Source of the DNA: Candidatus Yanofskybacteria bacterium
Lineage (GTDB): Bacteria > Patescibacteriota > Minisyncoccia > 2-02-FULL-40-12 > GWA2-44-9
Length of the DNA: 64,000 nt
Assembly: GCA_003514055.1 (NCBI GenBank)
Contig: DOSG01000008.1
Span: 45,895 to 109,894 of the forward strand
Reading direction: 5' to 3'
The notes beneath the pieces are model-generated. The model searched no databases. It saw only the letters and a program-made list of their open reading frames with translations, and had not been told where the DNA came from. Positions 13,288 to 44,604 of the stretch are shown piece by piece. Both the position numbers and the translations under genes were made by a program. Within the stretch, counting starts at the first letter, position 1; each line of letters opens with the position of its first letter.

Positions 13288-14031
13288 TTAATAGCGCCGT
13301 TCGAGATCGAACCAGAAGTAGAAACCGGAGTCAGGCGGATGGTAGTGGCCTGGGATATTGCAGAAACCTCTGATCCAGACCCAGCATTGACACCATTCAT
13401 CCCATTCCCAGTGTCCTGGAACGTGCATGTATCTATCTCCCCAGAGGTCATGGAATGGCCTCCAGAAGAAGTAGTACTTATTCGCTCCGAACCACCAGCC
13501 GGAGGAATACTCTCCACGCCCGTAATCACCGAACTGCGGATGTGGCAGCGGCGTAGGTCGAGTCCTTGGAATGGCATAGCGCGGAAGATCCCTCAGAGGG
13601 AATCGCTGATGCGTTCCTTGGCCACCACGAGGCAACTCGTTCGAATAGATGCCAGGCGGCCGCATCATCGCGCCCGGCCCGCGACCCATGCCTTGACCTT
13701 GTCCACGGCCTTGCTGGTCACCACGACCCATGCCTTGACCTTGACCACGTTGAGTACCTGGATCTTGCCGTGGCCGACTCCGCTGAGGATCACGGCCCAT
13801 GCCTTGACCCGAGCCTGAAGGTGGCCCCTGCCGTTGTGGCGGTTGCTGTCTTGGTTCGGCCCGAGGCGGTGGAGCCTGACGTGGCGGCGGCTGTTGCCGT
13901 GGCCTTTCTTGAGCTTGCGGGTCTCGAGTTGATCTTGGCTTGGCCTTTTCCCTTTCCTGGCTAGCCAAGAGTGCCGCCGATCCAAAGATCAGCAGCAGTA
14001 GAATCGAAAGAACTGTTCGTTTGCGGCGCAT
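13288..14031 (-). CDS. secreted low-complexity Pro/Gln/Arg/Gly-rich protein with GQGMGRG repeats and a Trp/Phe/Tyr-rich C-terminal domain
   Basis: Signal peptide MRRKRTVLSILLLLIFGSAALLA; GC-rich codons; three alternative-frame ORFs in the track are high-GC artefacts. Confidence 0.55.
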   Translation of the reverse strand: MRRKRTVLSILLLLIFGSAALLASQEREKAKPRSTRDPQAQERPRQQPPPRQAPPPRAEPRQQPPQRQGPPSGSGQGMGRDPQRSRPRQDPGTQRGQGQGMGRGDQQGRGQGQGMGRGPGAMMRPPGIYSNELPRGGQGTHQRFPLRDLPRYAIPRTRPTPLPHPQFGDYGRGEYSSGWWFGANKYYFFWRPFHDLWGDRYMHVPGHWEWDEWCQCWVWIRGFCNIPGHYHPPDSGFYFWFDLERRY

Positions 14032-36224: not shown

Positions 36225-37601
36225 ATGTCCAACGGAGAGGTAAAACAAAATGGATCGAACGGAAATGGAAATGGCAACGGCTCGCCTCGCGGCGAAACAG
36301 TAAACGGGCATCCTGAAAAACCCAAATATAAATTTCTTTTTATAAGCTGGGAAAGCTTGAGTGGAGATTTGGCCTGGCAAATAAAGAAAGAAGGCCATGA
36401 AGTCAAATGCTACATAAAAGATCTCGGCGGAACTAATGTCTACGATGGTATCTTAGAAAAAGTAGACGACTGGAAATCTTTCGTAGATTGGGCTGACGTT
36501 ATTGTCTTTGATGACATCTGGTTTGGCGATCAAGCTGACAAGTTAAGAAAGGCAGGAAAAGCTGTAATCGGTGGCAGCTCCTATACCGATAGATTAGAAG
36601 ACGATCGAGAGTTCGGACAATCAGAGATGAAAAGAATGGGCATGAATATTCTTCCGCATTGGGATTTTAGTGACTACGACGAGGCCCTGAAATTTATTTC
36701 CGAGAACCCAGGCCGCTATGTTTACAAGCCTTCTCTTGACGTCTCTTCCGATTGGAAAGGCCTTCTATTTATAGGCAAAGAAGAAGATGGCAAGGATTTA
36801 CATCAAATTCTATCCAGCAATAAAACCGTACTAGGTAAAAAAATAAAATCTTTTCAGCTACAGAAATATGCTTCTGGAGTCGAGGTCGGTTGTGCTGCGT
36901 TTTTTAATGGTCAAGATTTTATAATGCCCCTAAACATCGCCTTTGAGCACAAAAGACTTTTCCCCGGAGAGATTGGCCCCATGACTGGCGAAATGGGTAC
37001 TTCGATGTTCTGGTGCGGTCCAAATAATTTTTTCCGATCAACTCTTGAAAAAATGCTCGAACCTCTGCGCGCCTCTGGATATGTCGGATACATTGATATT
37101 AATTGCATAGTAAACGCTCGTGGCATTTATCCGCTAGAGTTCACCTGCCGTTTCGGTTACCCTACGATCTCCATTCAGCAAGAAGGGATACTGAACGATT
37201 GGGGAGAATTTTTTCATGCCATTGCCAACCATAAATCCTATGAATTGCGCACAAGAAAAGGATTCCAAGTCGGCGTCGTGGTTGCCACTCCACCATTTCC
37301 GTATGACGATAAGTCCGAGTTGGCGATTTACAACGACACATCTATTCTATTTAAAAAGCCCAATTATGAAGGCGTCCATCTAGGCGATGTAAAAATAGTC
37401 GATGGTGATTGGAAGATAGATGGCACTTGCGGATACGATTTGGTTGTTACGGGATCGGGCACGACGATGGAAGATGCTCGCCGTATGACCTACAACAGGA
37501 TCGACAACATTATGATTCTAAACATGTTCTACCGCACAGACATCGGCGCTACTTGGGCCGAAGATCGAGACAAGATGCACAGCTGGGAATACATTTACTA
37601 A
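36225..37601 (+). CDS. ATP-grasp enzyme of the phosphoribosylamine--glycine ligase (PurD) family, divergent, with an Asn/Gly-rich N-terminal tail
   Basis: PurD-like layout with a GEIGPMTGEMGTS loop resembling the GPNTGGMGAYSP motif; NGNGNGNG low-complexity N-terminus. Confidence 0.55.
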   Translation: MSNGEVKQNGSNGNGNGNGSPRGETVNGHPEKPKYKFLFISWESLSGDLAWQIKKEGHEVKCYIKDLGGTNVYDGILEKVDDWKSFVDWADVIVFDDIWFGDQADKLRKAGKAVIGGSSYTDRLEDDREFGQSEMKRMGMNILPHWDFSDYDEALKFISENPGRYVYKPSLDVSSDWKGLLFIGKEEDGKDLHQILSSNKTVLGKKIKSFQLQKYASGVEVGCAAFFNGQDFIMPLNIAFEHKRLFPGEIGPMTGEMGTSMFWCGPNNFFRSTLEKMLEPLRASGYVGYIDINCIVNARGIYPLEFTCRFGYPTISIQQEGILNDWGEFFHAIANHKSYELRTRKGFQVGVVVATPPFPYDDKSELAIYNDTSILFKKPNYEGVHLGDVKIVDGDWKIDGTCGYDLVVTGSGTTMEDARRMTYNRIDNIMILNMFYRTDIGATWAEDRDKMHSWEYIY

Positions 37602-37644: not shown

Positions 37645-38199
37645 CTAAAATAAATATGTCTTCAGAAACACAATCATGCCAACAGCGGTCACCACAATCT
37701 CGCACCAAAAAGTTAAAGTAAATTTATCGTAATAACATCTAATAAATCTAAACCAGTAATTAAAAAATCTATCATTGACTAGCCCCAGTTTTAGATCTGT
37801 ATTCTTAATCGAGTAGTGATCTTTTTTAAATGGCCATAGCCACATAACTCCATATTGTAAGGAATCTAGAATGAAGTGGGAGAACACCCCAGCAAGAAGA
37901 ACGATGCCTAAATATCGTATAAATAGATCTTGGCTAATAAATATTACCAGCCCACACAGAACCAACCAAAGAAGCGGCGCGTGAGAGATGAACATTCTAT
38001 GGTCAACTTCCTCTCTCTTGAACGTCATCTCCCTATTCTTGAAAAATACGTAGAAAGCATCCAGGTCTGGGATCATACCAAAAAAAGTTCCCCAAATGAG
38101 CAACCAATTAAGTTGACTAGCATCAAGCTCCGGCTTAAAGAATTTGATTATTCCGACAGTCATCAAATATCCAGCCGCTAAGTGCCCGGGCATTATCAT
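37645..38199 (-). CDS. membrane-bound metal-dependent hydrolase-like protein (YdjM/DUF457-like, tentative)
   Basis: Four TM helices with conserved His residues (SHAPLLW, SHFILDSL). Confidence 0.45.
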   Translation of the reverse strand: MIMPGHLAAGYLMTVGIIKFFKPELDASQLNWLLIWGTFFGMIPDLDAFYVFFKNREMTFKREEVDHRMFISHAPLLWLVLCGLVIFISQDLFIRYLGIVLLAGVFSHFILDSLQYGVMWLWPFKKDHYSIKNTDLKLGLVNDRFFNYWFRFIRCYYDKFTLTFWCEIVVTAVGMIVFLKTYLF

Positions 38200-38203
38200 A
38201 AAT

Positions 38204-38530
38204 TTATATGGTTCTTAAAAATATTCCTATTCTAGCTATAACAACAAATCCTACTCCCCAAATAAGTGGGAGCCAGTAAGGCACACCGAAAAGATGCGCC
38301 TTAGGCCAAATCTGCTGATAACCTAATGTGCGCATACCTATCTCGATAACTACTCCCAATATAACTCCCACAAAATACAAATAAAACTCTCCAGAGTTAT
38401 ATTTAAATAACCATATGAGAACAACCGAAAATATGGCGAATACGGTAAACTGGATTTCGCTCAGCTTATTAATAGACTCCGCAACGAAAAACAAAACAAA
38501 TATAGCTAGGGGTATTAATATTTCTAACAT
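38204..38530 (-). CDS. small membrane protein
   Basis: Three TM helices. Confidence 0.4.
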   Translation of the reverse strand: MLEILIPLAIFVLFFVAESINKLSEIQFTVFAIFSVVLIWLFKYNSGEFYLYFVGVILGVVIEIGMRTLGYQQIWPKAHLFGVPYWLPLIWGVGFVVIARIGIFLRTI

Positions 38531-38666
38531 CTGGGGGGCGCCTGAAGGGAATCGGCTTCGACTCTCGTCGCCTTCCGACGACTCGGTCTAGCCACCACCT
38601 CGTGATCTCGCTCGCCCATTGCTCGCAAGACAACGCTCCGGCGTTCGATTCCAATTTAAATCATTC

Positions 38667-38740
38667 TGGGCGCCTGAAGGGAATCGAACCCTCGTGACCG
38701 CTTCCACAGAGCGGCGTTCTACCATTGAACTACAGGCGCC
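38667..38740 (-). tRNA. tRNA-His (anticodon GTG) with an encoded G-1
   Basis: Manual cloverleaf: G-1 + GCGCCTG acceptor / D stem GTTC-GAAC / anticodon stem CCGCT-AGCGG with loop CTGTGGA / T stem GAGGG-CCCTT with loop TTCGATT. Confidence 0.85.
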
Positions 38741-38766
38741 ATAACAACCCGAAAATTATACCACGA

Positions 38767-39615
38767 TTACTGCCGATTCGTAAAATCAACCGCGTCAATA
38801 AGCTCATGAAATCCTTTATCTCCAGAGAAAGACGTGCTCGAGTCTATCTTTTTTCTGAGAGCTACAATCGCCTGCTCATGGGTCATATGGCCTCTCCTTC
38901 TAAAAGCATCGTATACATCCAATACGCAAATTAATTTCTCGGGCCTATCGAATGATAAATTTTCGCCAAAATATTTTGTAAATCTTCCGTCGGCGGCGAT
39001 AATACCTTCGGGATTAATACCCTGAATAAAGTGATGACTTGCTGCGGCGACGACTGCTTCTGCCGGAACCCCATCGCCGCTTATTATCTGGAGTGTCCAC
39101 TCGGCATGCATATCCCAGAATTTTCTCATCACCATTTCTGGATCTAATCCCATACTCACGTAGACACCAACTCTCTCTGTATGATCATCTGGAAAATATT
39201 TTTCTAGATATTTTGCCACAGAAAGCTTATCTTCGCCACCACCCCAATCCTTACTGTCGATTGAGTATATAGTCGCGATCATCTTTTGCTGCTCGAAATT
39301 TGCTACCCTTGGTCCAGTTTTACCGACGTCCGAAAAAGTCGTACCGATAATTACTGTTTTTTGCTCTCGTTCGGTCCACCGTTCCTCTGGTCTATTATTC
39401 TCATACCAAGCGAACACAGCCCTGGCTAAGTGAATGGCGTTATGCTCGTCTTCGACGGTTTTAGTTAATTCCGCTAATAAGATCAAGCGACTAACAATAT
39501 CCGGCCTTATCTTCGCTATATCTAGGCCAACCTCTGTAAGTAAAAAACGCATCCTCTCATATCCTTCAGGATTAGTAATAGATTCTTGGTTATTAATAGT
39601 ATTTTGCTCCACCAT
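38767..39615 (-). CDS. hypothetical protein (282 aa), possibly HD-like phosphohydrolase
   Basis: His-rich patches (HNAIH, ASHHF) and a C-terminal DVYDAFRRRGHM segment resembling the HD-domain tail. Confidence 0.45.
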   Translation of the reverse strand: MVEQNTINNQESITNPEGYERMRFLLTEVGLDIAKIRPDIVSRLILLAELTKTVEDEHNAIHLARAVFAWYENNRPEERWTEREQKTVIIGTTFSDVGKTGPRVANFEQQKMIATIYSIDSKDWGGGEDKLSVAKYLEKYFPDDHTERVGVYVSMGLDPEMVMRKFWDMHAEWTLQIISGDGVPAEAVVAAASHHFIQGINPEGIIAADGRFTKYFGENLSFDRPEKLICVLDVYDAFRRRGHMTHEQAIVALRKKIDSSTSFSGDKGFHELIDAVDFTNRQ

Positions 39616-39630
39616 GCTTCCTTATGTAAA

Positions 39631-40122
39631 TTATCGATCTATTTGTGCGAATAATACCACGTAGTTTTTACCATATGCCTTGGCACATTTCGGACAAGTG
39701 GTATACGAGAAATATAAATTCATTATGTCGGAACCCTTAGATTTGATGTAGTCCCTCATCTCCTTGGCCCACTTACCAGCATTTTGATATGGCCCCTCGA
39801 AAACTTTCGTTAGAAATGTTCCTGAAAGCGTAGCCATCTGCGCTCCCGGCACATCTTTAGAAACGTCGACATAAATATCTGCGCCCCAAAGAGATTTCTC
39901 ATCCGTTAACATTAATTGGTGAGACGCCTTAGCGCCCGCCTTTTCAATGAGATCCAAGTTTTTAATAACTCTAGCTCCCATATTAATCGGCATATGTAAA
40001 AAACTAGTAATATGATCTTTCACAAAAAGTTTATCTTTCCAAATTATCTCCTTATTCTGCCAGAGCTCAGGATTAAACGGTTCGCAACATCCAGTCGATT
40101 GTATTGGTTCTTGAGTATCCAT
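39631..40122 (-). CDS. hypothetical protein (163 aa)
   Basis: ORF track; Cys pairs near both termini (GCCEP...TTCPKC). Confidence 0.45.
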   Translation of the reverse strand: MDTQEPIQSTGCCEPFNPELWQNKEIIWKDKLFVKDHITSFLHMPINMGARVIKNLDLIEKAGAKASHQLMLTDEKSLWGADIYVDVSKDVPGAQMATLSGTFLTKVFEGPYQNAGKWAKEMRDYIKSKGSDIMNLYFSYTTCPKCAKAYGKNYVVLFAQIDR

Positions 40123-40262
40123 ATATTTTCATTATATTTGTTGAGTGCGCAGAAACAACTGCCCTGCTCTTCCGTAGCTTTAGCGAAGGAGGGGCATACT
40201 CTTATGATTGAATCATGCCAGTATTTGATGAGAAATCCATTACTTACATTGAGCTAACGTTA

Positions 40263-40901
40263 TTAATTTCTTGATTCTAGGTTTGCAACAATCCAGACTC
40301 CCCATCCTGTCAAAGCAACACTTAATACAGCTAGAATTACAACACTGCTAACCAATAAGGTTGACCCACAAAAATAATCATAATTTGGTAATGCTAATAA
40401 GGAAATTACAATAGTCAATACGGCTAAACTTAGACTTAATCCTAAATTATTAATAATTTTTTTCTTATCCAATACCGACATTTTTAGGACATCCCTCTTC
40501 ATTGATAAATAGCCGTAGATTCTATCTGGGTCGGGTCCATAAAAACTATGCCATTCAGAATGTATAACCTCAAGCATCTCTGCTTTATATTTTTCAAAGA
40601 TCTTGCCTTCTAATCCTAATGTTTCACTTCTAGGATCCAGGCGATCTAGGCATTTCTGAAATAAGCTTAGGTAATCGTTGTTTGTTAATGCATCAATCTG
40701 ATGAATCTCCGTTGCATGAATTTCTTTGTCAAGTTGAGATGTGCCTAGAAGTATGAATCTTCTAATTCTAGGATCTTTTCTTATCTCTGTAATCTTACTG
40801 GATAGCATATTAAGATTAACAGCACCAAATGTTGCTACTAGCGCTATCATAGTAGCTAGGGTCTGAGGTATGGCACTTAATGTATAATACCAATATTCCA
40901 T
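40263..40901 (-). CDS. membrane protein (212 aa)
   Basis: N- and C-terminal TM helices. Confidence 0.45.
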   Translation of the reverse strand: MEYWYYTLSAIPQTLATMIALVATFGAVNLNMLSSKITEIRKDPRIRRFILLGTSQLDKEIHATEIHQIDALTNNDYLSLFQKCLDRLDPRSETLGLEGKIFEKYKAEMLEVIHSEWHSFYGPDPDRIYGYLSMKRDVLKMSVLDKKKIINNLGLSLSLAVLTIVISLLALPNYDYFCGSTLLVSSVVILAVLSVALTGWGVWIVANLESRN

Positions 40902-41102
40902 ATTAGAGATTCTTTATTTGATTCATTATGCTCTATTCCATTGGTTTTTCAAGCCAAAGGAGTCATAATAAAAACAACAATCAGGTTGCCTAAATTCATG
41001 ACCTAATTGTGATGAGATTGCAGATCCGATCAACAAACACAGACTTATCATTTCTATGGTGGCAAACCTCGAACTCAATGAAGAGAATCTAATCATTACA
41101 TG

Positions 41103-41140
41103 GAAAAGGCCGTTCGACTTAATTGCCAAACGGCCTTTTC
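41103..41140. terminator. 12-bp perfect hairpin
   Basis: GAAAAGGCCGTT-loop-AACGGCCTTTTC. Confidence 0.5.
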
Positions 41141-41231
41141 CTTCAAATGGTCGGGCACATTCGCGCTGGTGCGCTCAGTATTTCCTCGCTCACGCTCGGT
41201 CACTGCCTCTTGCCCTCATATACGGTAAATT

Positions 41232-41256
41232 AAAACAGGGTTTTTAACCCTGTTTT
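41232..41256 (-). terminator. terminator immediately downstream of tRNA-Pro
   Basis: AAAACAGGG-TTTTTAA-CCCTGTTTT. Confidence 0.65.
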
Positions 41257-41267
41257 AATTTCCGATG

Positions 41268-41338
41268 TCGGGCTGCCGGGATTTGAACCCGGACTAAAAC
41301 GTCCCAAACGTCTCGTGCTACCGTTACACTACAGCCCG
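41268..41338 (-). tRNA. tRNA-Pro (anticodon TGG)
   Basis: Acceptor CGGGCTG/CAGCCCG; anticodon stem AGACG-CGTTT; loop TTTGGGA; T arm CCGGG-TTCAAAT-CCCGG. Confidence 0.85.
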
Positions 41339-44047: not shown

Positions 44048-44076
44048 ATTGACTAATAAAAAGATTGACTGTAATT
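44048..44076 (+). promoter_or_regulatory. candidate promoter TTGACT-17-TAATTA
   Basis: Located upstream of the ATG at 44101. Confidence 0.35.
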
Positions 44077-44100
44077 AAGACGCATCAATCTATTAAAATT

Positions 44101-44604
44101 ATGCCTAAAAAATTAATCATAAAAATGGCTAGAAACGGCAAGGGCATTTTCGCCGCAAAAGCATTCAAGCAAGGAGAAATAATTGAGACTATCAGCGGGA
44201 AACTCGTACATCACGAAAGGGCGAGCAAGCTTTGGGATGAGAATGCCAGAAAAGCCGAAAACTTATTTCGTTATTGTGGGACAAGATACCTAAGCCCAGA
44301 AGGAGAGCTTGGAGATTATTCAAATCATTCATGCAATCCAAATTCAGGAGTTATAAAAAATAAAGGCAAATTATTCTGGATAGCCATAAATGACATTAAA
44401 CGTGGCCAAGAAACACTTATCGATTACTCAACCATAATTGGTGCCGATGACGCCTGGACCATGAAATGTAACTGCGGAGAGAAGGAGTGTCGTAAAATTA
44501 TAAGAAGCATCGACAAACTACCTAAGAAAATCCTCGATAGATACCTAAAACTAGGCATTATCCCAAGATATATCTTAAACACTATGAAAAAAGCACGCCC
44601 CTAA
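44101..44604 (+). CDS. SET-domain protein (putative lysine methyltransferase); the ORF-track start at 44065 is a TTG extension
   Basis: ELGDYSNHSCNPN (NHSCxPN SET motif), ETLIDYS, and a post-SET CNCGEKEC cysteine cluster. Confidence 0.7.
   Translation: MPKKLIIKMARNGKGIFAAKAFKQGEIIETISGKLVHHERASKLWDENARKAENLFRYCGTRYLSPEGELGDYSNHSCNPNSGVIKNKGKLFWIAINDIKRGQETLIDYSTIIGADDAWTMKCNCGEKECRKIIRSIDKLPKKILDRYLKLGIIPRYILNTMKKARP

Follow-up and report, generated by a model that had tools for sequence, protein, structure and literature searches.

The 64-kb window (the whole stretch of DNA that was analysed; its strain is called W below) carries a tRNA-His(GTG) gene with a gene for a conserved hypothetical protein of 282 aa upstream and genes for a 108-aa membrane protein and a YdjM-family membrane protein downstream. 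The 3' end of this tRNA gene is present a second time, directly before the start codon of the 108-aa gene, and the two copies are separated by a short stretch of inserted DNA (Table 1). ARAGORN and Rfam alike called the tRNA at 38668-38739 (-). The G-1 base is encoded at 38740, the discriminator is C73, and CCA is not encoded.

Table 1. Features at the tRNA-His locus, in positions of the window
Feature	Position	Strand	Basis or remark
YdjM-family membrane protein gene, downstream syntenic anchor	37645..38199	-	
108-aa membrane-protein ORF	38204..38530	-	ATG directly after distal copy
Distal copy of tRNA-His 3' end, attR-like	38530..38554	-	Repeat search; orthology with L013 and L012
Imperfect 44-nt hairpin/palindrome, GGAA loop	38553..38596	-	-20.9 kcal/mol, z -3.45
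113-nt lineage-specific spacer (inserted DNA)	38555..38667	-	Composition; comparison with L013, L020 and L012
Proximal copy of 19-nt core (T-loop C56 to C74), attL-like	38668..38686	-	Repeat search
tRNA-His(GTG), functional	38668..38740	-	ARAGORN; Rfam tRNA 68.5 bits, E 7.7e-15; sequence reading
Promoter-like site TTTACG-18-TG.TATAAT upstream of tRNA-His	38755..38784	-	Conserved in L012, L013, L020
282-aa conserved hypothetical gene, upstream of tRNA-His	38767..39615	-	

By repeat search, an exact 19-nt direct repeat (GGGCGCCTGAAGGGAATCG on the plus strand, CGATTCCCTTCAGGCGCCC in its transcribed-strand form) was detected at 38536-38554 and 38668-38686, with a start-to-start distance of 132. 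The insertion beside the tRNA gene thus measures 132 bp. In tRNA-His the identity begins at C56 of the T-loop TTCGATT and runs through the 3' strand of the T-stem and the 3' strand of the acceptor stem to C73 and C74. The proximal copy completes the functional tRNA. The distal copy reaches 25 nt and consists of the exact 19-mer, a C-run three bases longer and AGA; given this 3-nt run difference (GGG versus GGGGGG), the TCT flank is also shared by both copies. An earlier note on this DNA had described the direct repeat of the tRNA's own 3' end and the expansion of GGG to GGGGGG, and both observations hold. Its repeat positions were nearly right as well, except that the distal copy occupies 38530-38554 rather than 38533-38554 and the spacer measures 113 nt rather than 112 nt.

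At up to 3 mismatches, the 19-mer has only two matches in the 64-kb window, against 0 of 100 dinucleotide shuffles, and the repetition of the tRNA-His 3' end is far beyond chance. A third copy bounding a larger island, which the earlier note had proposed to look for, is absent from the window. The other three tRNA genes of the window (Pro, Arg and Gly) show no duplication of their ends. Of these, Arg and Gly lie near a gene for a SET-domain protein (PF00856, E 6e-13) at 44065-44604 (+). At least 8 contigs assembled independently of one another (NCBI MAGs, JGI, Logan) show the duplication structure, identical base for base. Near-identical contigs with the window's proteins, identified by exact-protein match, include MGLA01000001.1 (GCA_001794775.1) and many Rifle and other groundwater contigs.

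The 282-aa protein encoded upstream has no Pfam match, and 19 homologues were found at E<=1e-5 among 5.8 billion proteins. The few homologues with a named source come from Parcubacteria/Patescibacteria, and judged by these matches it is a lineage-restricted conserved hypothetical protein. A strong promoter-like site precedes tRNA-His (Table 1), and there is no terminator-like site between it and the 108-aa gene, so the spacer is probably transcribed as a leader. More broadly, no terminator-like site was found in 38100-39000. A probable co-transcript would therefore comprise tRNA-His, the 108-aa gene and the YdjM gene, with the duplicated end and the spacer inside it as extra leader sequence. 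On the other side of the YdjM gene, a GARS-like ATP-grasp protein is encoded at 36225-37601 (+); it has a low-complexity N-terminal extension (NGSNGNGNGNGS), and its start position differs among the gene calls of the assemblies (419-458 aa).

The GC content of the spacer is 55.8% overall and 62% over 38555-38652 (98 nt), compared with a window mean of 41.6% (sd 6.1%), and by composition the spacer is foreign. GC richness alone was rejected as an RNA signal after a look at other GC-rich patches of the window; the one at 13.3-14.0 kb codes for a Q/P/R/G-rich protein. This patch is the most GC-rich stretch of the window (13288-14031 (-), up to 71% in 113-nt windows). The product of its 247-aa ORF has no Pfam match; it has a hydrophobic segment at its N-terminus and an extended low-complexity region rich in Q/P/R/G, in which repeats like QGQGMGRG occur.

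The 44-nt hairpin at one end of the spacer adjoins the distal core copy on its 5' side. With no U-tract after it, the hairpin is not a terminator; it could be an inverted repeat for protein binding that the lost element left behind, or simply fortuitous. Folding of the spacer alone is not significant against shuffles (z -1.3 to -1.9). In the minimum-free-energy fold of the 221-nt region (z -2.98), the 5' acceptor strand of tRNA-His pairs with the distal copy, a trivial consequence of the duplication. A second tRNA was found neither by ARAGORN on both strands nor by Rfam at E up to 10. More generally, Rfam 15 gave nothing credible on 38300-38900 at E up to 10, and a search of the whole window at gathering scores returned four tRNAs and no other family. 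There is no second copy of the spacer in the window or in any fetched locus.

Directly after the proximal copy, 30 nt of the spacer (ATGATTTAAATTGGA-ATCGAAC-GCCGGA) weakly resemble the start of the YdjM gene as it abuts tRNA-His in the relative L020 (ATGATTTTACCTGGACATTTAGCGGCCGGA); the similarity was reached in 2 of 500 shuffles, a value that is uncorrected for 21 comparisons. The YdjM-start-like stretch lies at 38637-38664 (-) and reads ATGATTTAAATTGGAATCGAACGCCGGA; possibly it is what is left of a tRNA-His/YdjM junction of the donor or of an ancestor. For the other ~80 nt, a GC-rich stretch, neither a YdjM gene nor any other fetched sequence gave a match.

We then compared the locus with its relatives, using the upstream 282-aa gene as a syntenic anchor and fetching the contigs of its homologues. 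In other Parcubacteria contigs the homologue is 85% identical in L012, 80% in L013, 78% in L014-L017 and 73% in L020/L021. In L013, 4 nt separate tRNA-His from the ATG of a 107-aa homologue of the 108-aa gene (...GGCGCCCTGCGATGGAAATATTAATACC), and there is no duplicate. In L020/L021 the encoded CCA of tRNA-His overlaps the ATG of YdjM (...GGCGCCCCATGATTTTACC), the 108-aa gene is absent, and again there is no duplicate. L014-L017 carry a quite different tRNA-His followed by a perfect terminator hairpin, with neither downstream gene and no duplicate. L012 has the same tRNA-His as W, then 13 nt, a degenerate second copy and YdjM; the 108-aa gene is missing. More distant relatives (282-aa homologue at <=55% identity) lack tRNA-His at this position and are uninformative, P0013 is an N-terminal fragment without the tRNA-His locus, and a search of genome contigs with the 282-aa protein gave one weak and irrelevant match, in a Methylobacter MAG.

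Read from their junctions, L013 and L020 are empty sites, as the earlier note had suggested looking for in related genomes, and the duplicated segment is not part of a conserved tRNA trailer. The junction of L013 can be aligned with what follows the distal copy in W (...GGCGCCCCCCAGATGTTAGAAATATTAATACC; 0 of 500 shuffles), and the distal copy is thus the native 3' end, still joined to the native downstream gene. The L012 second copy aligns with the W distal copy including both flanks (GAAGTAGATTCCCTTCGGGCGCTACCAAG versus GAAGCCGATTCCCTTCAGGCGCCCCCCAG; 0 of 1000 shuffles). The claim of orthology between W and L012 rests on the distal copy and its flanks, and the similarity of the two spacers just after the proximal copy is not significant by itself (442 of 1000 shuffles).

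A neighbour-joining tree of the 282-aa protein has the form ((W, L012), L013, L014, L020). With W and L012 as sisters and L013, L014 and L020 outside, a single gain suffices. The parsimonious reading of these sequences is one insertion in the common ancestor of W and L012, followed by erosion through deletion; in L012, about 100 nt of spacer would have been deleted, the distal copy would have decayed by point mutation, and the 108-aa gene would have been lost. The L013 site may never have been occupied, or an insert may have been excised from it precisely. The genes that lie downstream of tRNA-His differ among the relatives (nothing, YdjM alone, or the 108-aa gene plus YdjM), which is as expected at an integration hotspot.

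Other parts of the neighbourhood vary too. At the same syntenic position, L014/L015 (3368-3490) have a tRNA-His whose acceptor sequence is GGTGAGT, whose T-loop region (GGGATCGTGACCC) is unusual and whose CCA is encoded, and the tRNA-His gene appears to have been replaced within the clade. The interval from tRNA-Pro to the 282-aa gene also differs: in the window (39631-41338) it holds a 212-aa ORF and a Bact_hydrolase gene, and in L012 (998-2481) one 106-aa EamA-like ORF. By these comparisons the whole neighbourhood from tRNA-Pro to tRNA-His is plastic.

Searches for the inserted element itself were negative. Neither a tyrosine nor a serine recombinase was found by Pfam scans among the window ORFs >=150 aa in 64 kb (the earlier note had proposed to look for a tyrosine integrase elsewhere), and the 113 bp between the repeats contain no integrase. 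Viral contigs gave 0 matches to the spacer arm, the core, the degenerate core, the tRNA 5' half or the 108-aa protein. With the spacer as blastn query, phage records gave 0 matches and plasmids gave one 28-nt chance match (Neisseria records). In metagenome contigs the degenerate core CRATTCCCTYYAGGCGCCC was found at 51 loci, none of them a relative; three are unrelated tRNAs, and chance matches in coding DNA of high GC content account for nearly all of the loci. An attP-like core elsewhere was not found in the viral, plasmid, phage or metagenome collections, and no site occupied by a full element was found among the relatives.

Taken together, we consider the locus a decayed attL/attR-type scar of an element that inserted at tRNA-His and has since mostly been lost, with a probability of roughly 0.55. 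In the common ancestor of W and its closest sampled relative, the T-loop of tRNA-His would have been the site of a DNA insertion. The incoming DNA would have brought its own T-loop-to-3'-end tRNA segment, by which the tRNA gene was rebuilt (the attL-like proximal copy), and the original 3' end would have been displaced downstream, against the start codon of the 108-aa gene (the attR-like distal copy). Such an arrangement is what a phage or island typically leaves when it integrates site-specifically at the T-loop of a tRNA or tmRNA gene. The integrated phage or island, presumably larger at that time, would later have been deleted nearly completely, leaving 113 bp in W and 13 bp in L012, and the end state would be a CIME-like remnant in which the att sites are kept and the integrase is lost. 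The predicted attP junction is GAGAGTCGAAGC + CGATTCCCTTCAGGCGCCC + AGAATGATTTAAATTGG, i.e. ...GTCGAAGC + core + AGAATGATTT..., and the scar is most likely inert now.

The earlier note had read the locus as the mark left by an insertion at a tRNA gene, either a remnant or a mini-insertion, and the reading as an insertion that is now a remnant is borne out by the empty sites in L013 and L020, the native distal copy and the further decay in L012. It had also named an integrase as the agent. Integrase involvement is suggested by the start of the repeat in the T-loop, a canonical sublocation of tRNA integration, but the agent finds no support in the searches, which returned no recombinase among the scanned window ORFs >=150 aa, no third core copy and no attP-like copy. 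The same searches weigh against an integrase scar as a whole: there is no occupied relative, the spacer and core are absent from viral, phage and plasmid records, and the metagenome matches are chance only. Moreover, the YdjM-like 30 nt, if real, would point to chromosomal DNA of a relative and not to a classical element arm.

The main rival is homology-facilitated illegitimate recombination (HFIR), which needs no recombinase. Here, DNA of a relative would have been anchored by tRNA-His and joined illegitimately at its far end within the T-loop of the recipient, whose T-loop-to-3'-end segment would have been retained behind 113 bp of donor DNA (the donor having supplied tRNA-His and its downstream sequence). 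Such an event gives the exact layout of an intact anchor gene, foreign DNA and a duplicated recipient segment, the mechanism is documented for transformable bacteria in the part of PMC6382021 that deals with it, and it fits the lack of an integrase in the scanned ORFs. The YdjM-like stretch would be expected if the donor arrangement was of the L020 type, but after correction for the 21 comparisons this match is merely suggestive, and the other ~80 nt of GC-rich spacer have no counterpart in the fetched sequences. Furthermore, HFIR does not predict a junction exactly at the canonical T-loop sublocation of integrases. We regard it as an unlikely explanation, though one to be taken seriously. A local tandem duplication of tRNA-His or its 3' part, with the downstream copy decayed to a pseudo-tRNA with expansions, is improbable. 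By eye, the tRNA-body 8-mers GAACGCCG and TCACGAGG recur in the spacer in the same order, but alignment of the spacer with the 5' 54 nt of the tRNA is at chance level (54 of 500 shuffles for global and 70 of 500 for local alignment). ARAGORN and Rfam, even at E up to 10, detect no second tRNA, and the duplicated segment does not fold into one, an outcome that the earlier note had said would refute its reading. Neutral decay would not leave 19 nt perfect beside 113 nt that are unrecognisable, and the spacer GC is unlike the local DNA that such copying would use.

It is very improbable that the spacer and the distal half-tRNA form a functional RNA, for example a structured leader of the 108-aa mRNA or a tRNA-like signal for its processing, perhaps with the 5' acceptor strand alternating between the two 3' copies as pairing partners. 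The uninterrupted path from the tRNA promoter to the 108-aa gene, the z-scores of the hairpin (-3.45) and of the 221-nt fold with its distal-copy pairing, and the position of the tRNA 3' end against the start codon in relatives, where processing probably sets the mRNA 5' end, are in its favour. Against this, the spacer is dispensable, given that L013 and L020 do without it and L012 has lost nearly all of it; its available copies do not differ from one another, which leaves no covariation to test; and the spacer-alone fold is not significant, Rfam has no match, and the alternative pairing follows trivially from the duplication. An assembly artefact at the repeated tRNA sequence has nothing to recommend it except the general risk in metagenome-assembled genomes, and it is refuted for practical purposes because the identical contigs, at least 8 of them, come from differing samples, assemblers and projects.

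The junctions of the relatives deserve attention in their own right. In L020 (1432-1510) the A of the encoded CCA is shared with the YdjM ATG, and the L013 junction, with its 4-nt distance, lies at 2482-2560 (to be compared with 38528-38540 of the window). Neither junction contains a Shine-Dalgarno-like sequence or a terminator. These arrangements, in very compact Parcubacteria genomes, suggest tRNA-mRNA co-transcripts in which 3' processing of the tRNA sets the 5' end of a near-leaderless mRNA, and since the tRNA 3' end abuts the start codon, processing of the tRNA probably defines the 5' end of the mRNA. This would resemble mitochondrial tRNA punctuation. A tRNA-His that abuts or overlaps the next start codon is perhaps a more interesting lead than the scar. 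It would be a long shot to propose that the half-tRNA and the GC-rich hairpin spacer of W are not inert, with the distal copy preserving the processing/initiation context in a role like tRNA punctuation. If this were true, either 3' copy could serve as the pairing partner of the 5' acceptor strand, and tRNA-His maturation would be coupled to expression of the downstream membrane proteins.

The locus is a clean example, from the Candidate Phyla Radiation (Candidatus Yanofskybacteria), of insertion at a tRNA gene with both an empty site and a decay series. To our knowledge, few mobile elements have been characterised in bacteria of this radiation. The scar marks tRNA-His as a plastic spot in the W lineage, and a specific attP-like junction is now searchable, should the element survive somewhere. 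Its importance is modest, as it is an ordinary and well-known kind of feature and indicates no new mechanism.

Among known systems, the closest in layout are integrations directed by tRNA/tmRNA-targeting integrases. As far as the cited passages describe them, the canonical crossover sublocations are the anticodon loop, the T-loop and the 3' end, the T-loop sublocation comes with direct repeats of about 20 bp, and the 20-bp ssrA repeats in Dehalococcoides are an example of T-loop-type integration (10.1101/2020.11.02.365908; PMC3146451). On the points covered there, W is similar in the length of its repeat (about 20 bp) and the part of the tRNA gene that it covers (T-loop to 3' end), in its intact tRNA gene, in the native 3' end beyond the inserted DNA and in having relatives with empty sites; it differs in having only 113 bp between the repeats and no integrase, cargo or detected copy elsewhere. 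HFIR has been documented in naturally transformable bacteria (de Vries and Wackernagel 2002, cited in PMC6382021). Going by that secondary account, W would share with HFIR products a conserved gene as a plausible anchor on one side followed by foreign DNA, an illegitimate far junction and a short recipient segment that can be duplicated, and is unlike them in that its junction coincides with an integrase sublocation. Integrated elements also commonly decay to att-flanked remnants without integrase (CIMEs), according to the relevant part of PMC5704250. Within the scope of that description, W resembles CIMEs, with att-like repeats flanking DNA that has no recombination genes and a decay series from 113 bp in W to 13 bp in L012. 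CIMEs described so far are generally much larger, at kilobase scale, and a related integrase can mobilise them in cis, whereas nothing in the W scar suggests residual mobility.
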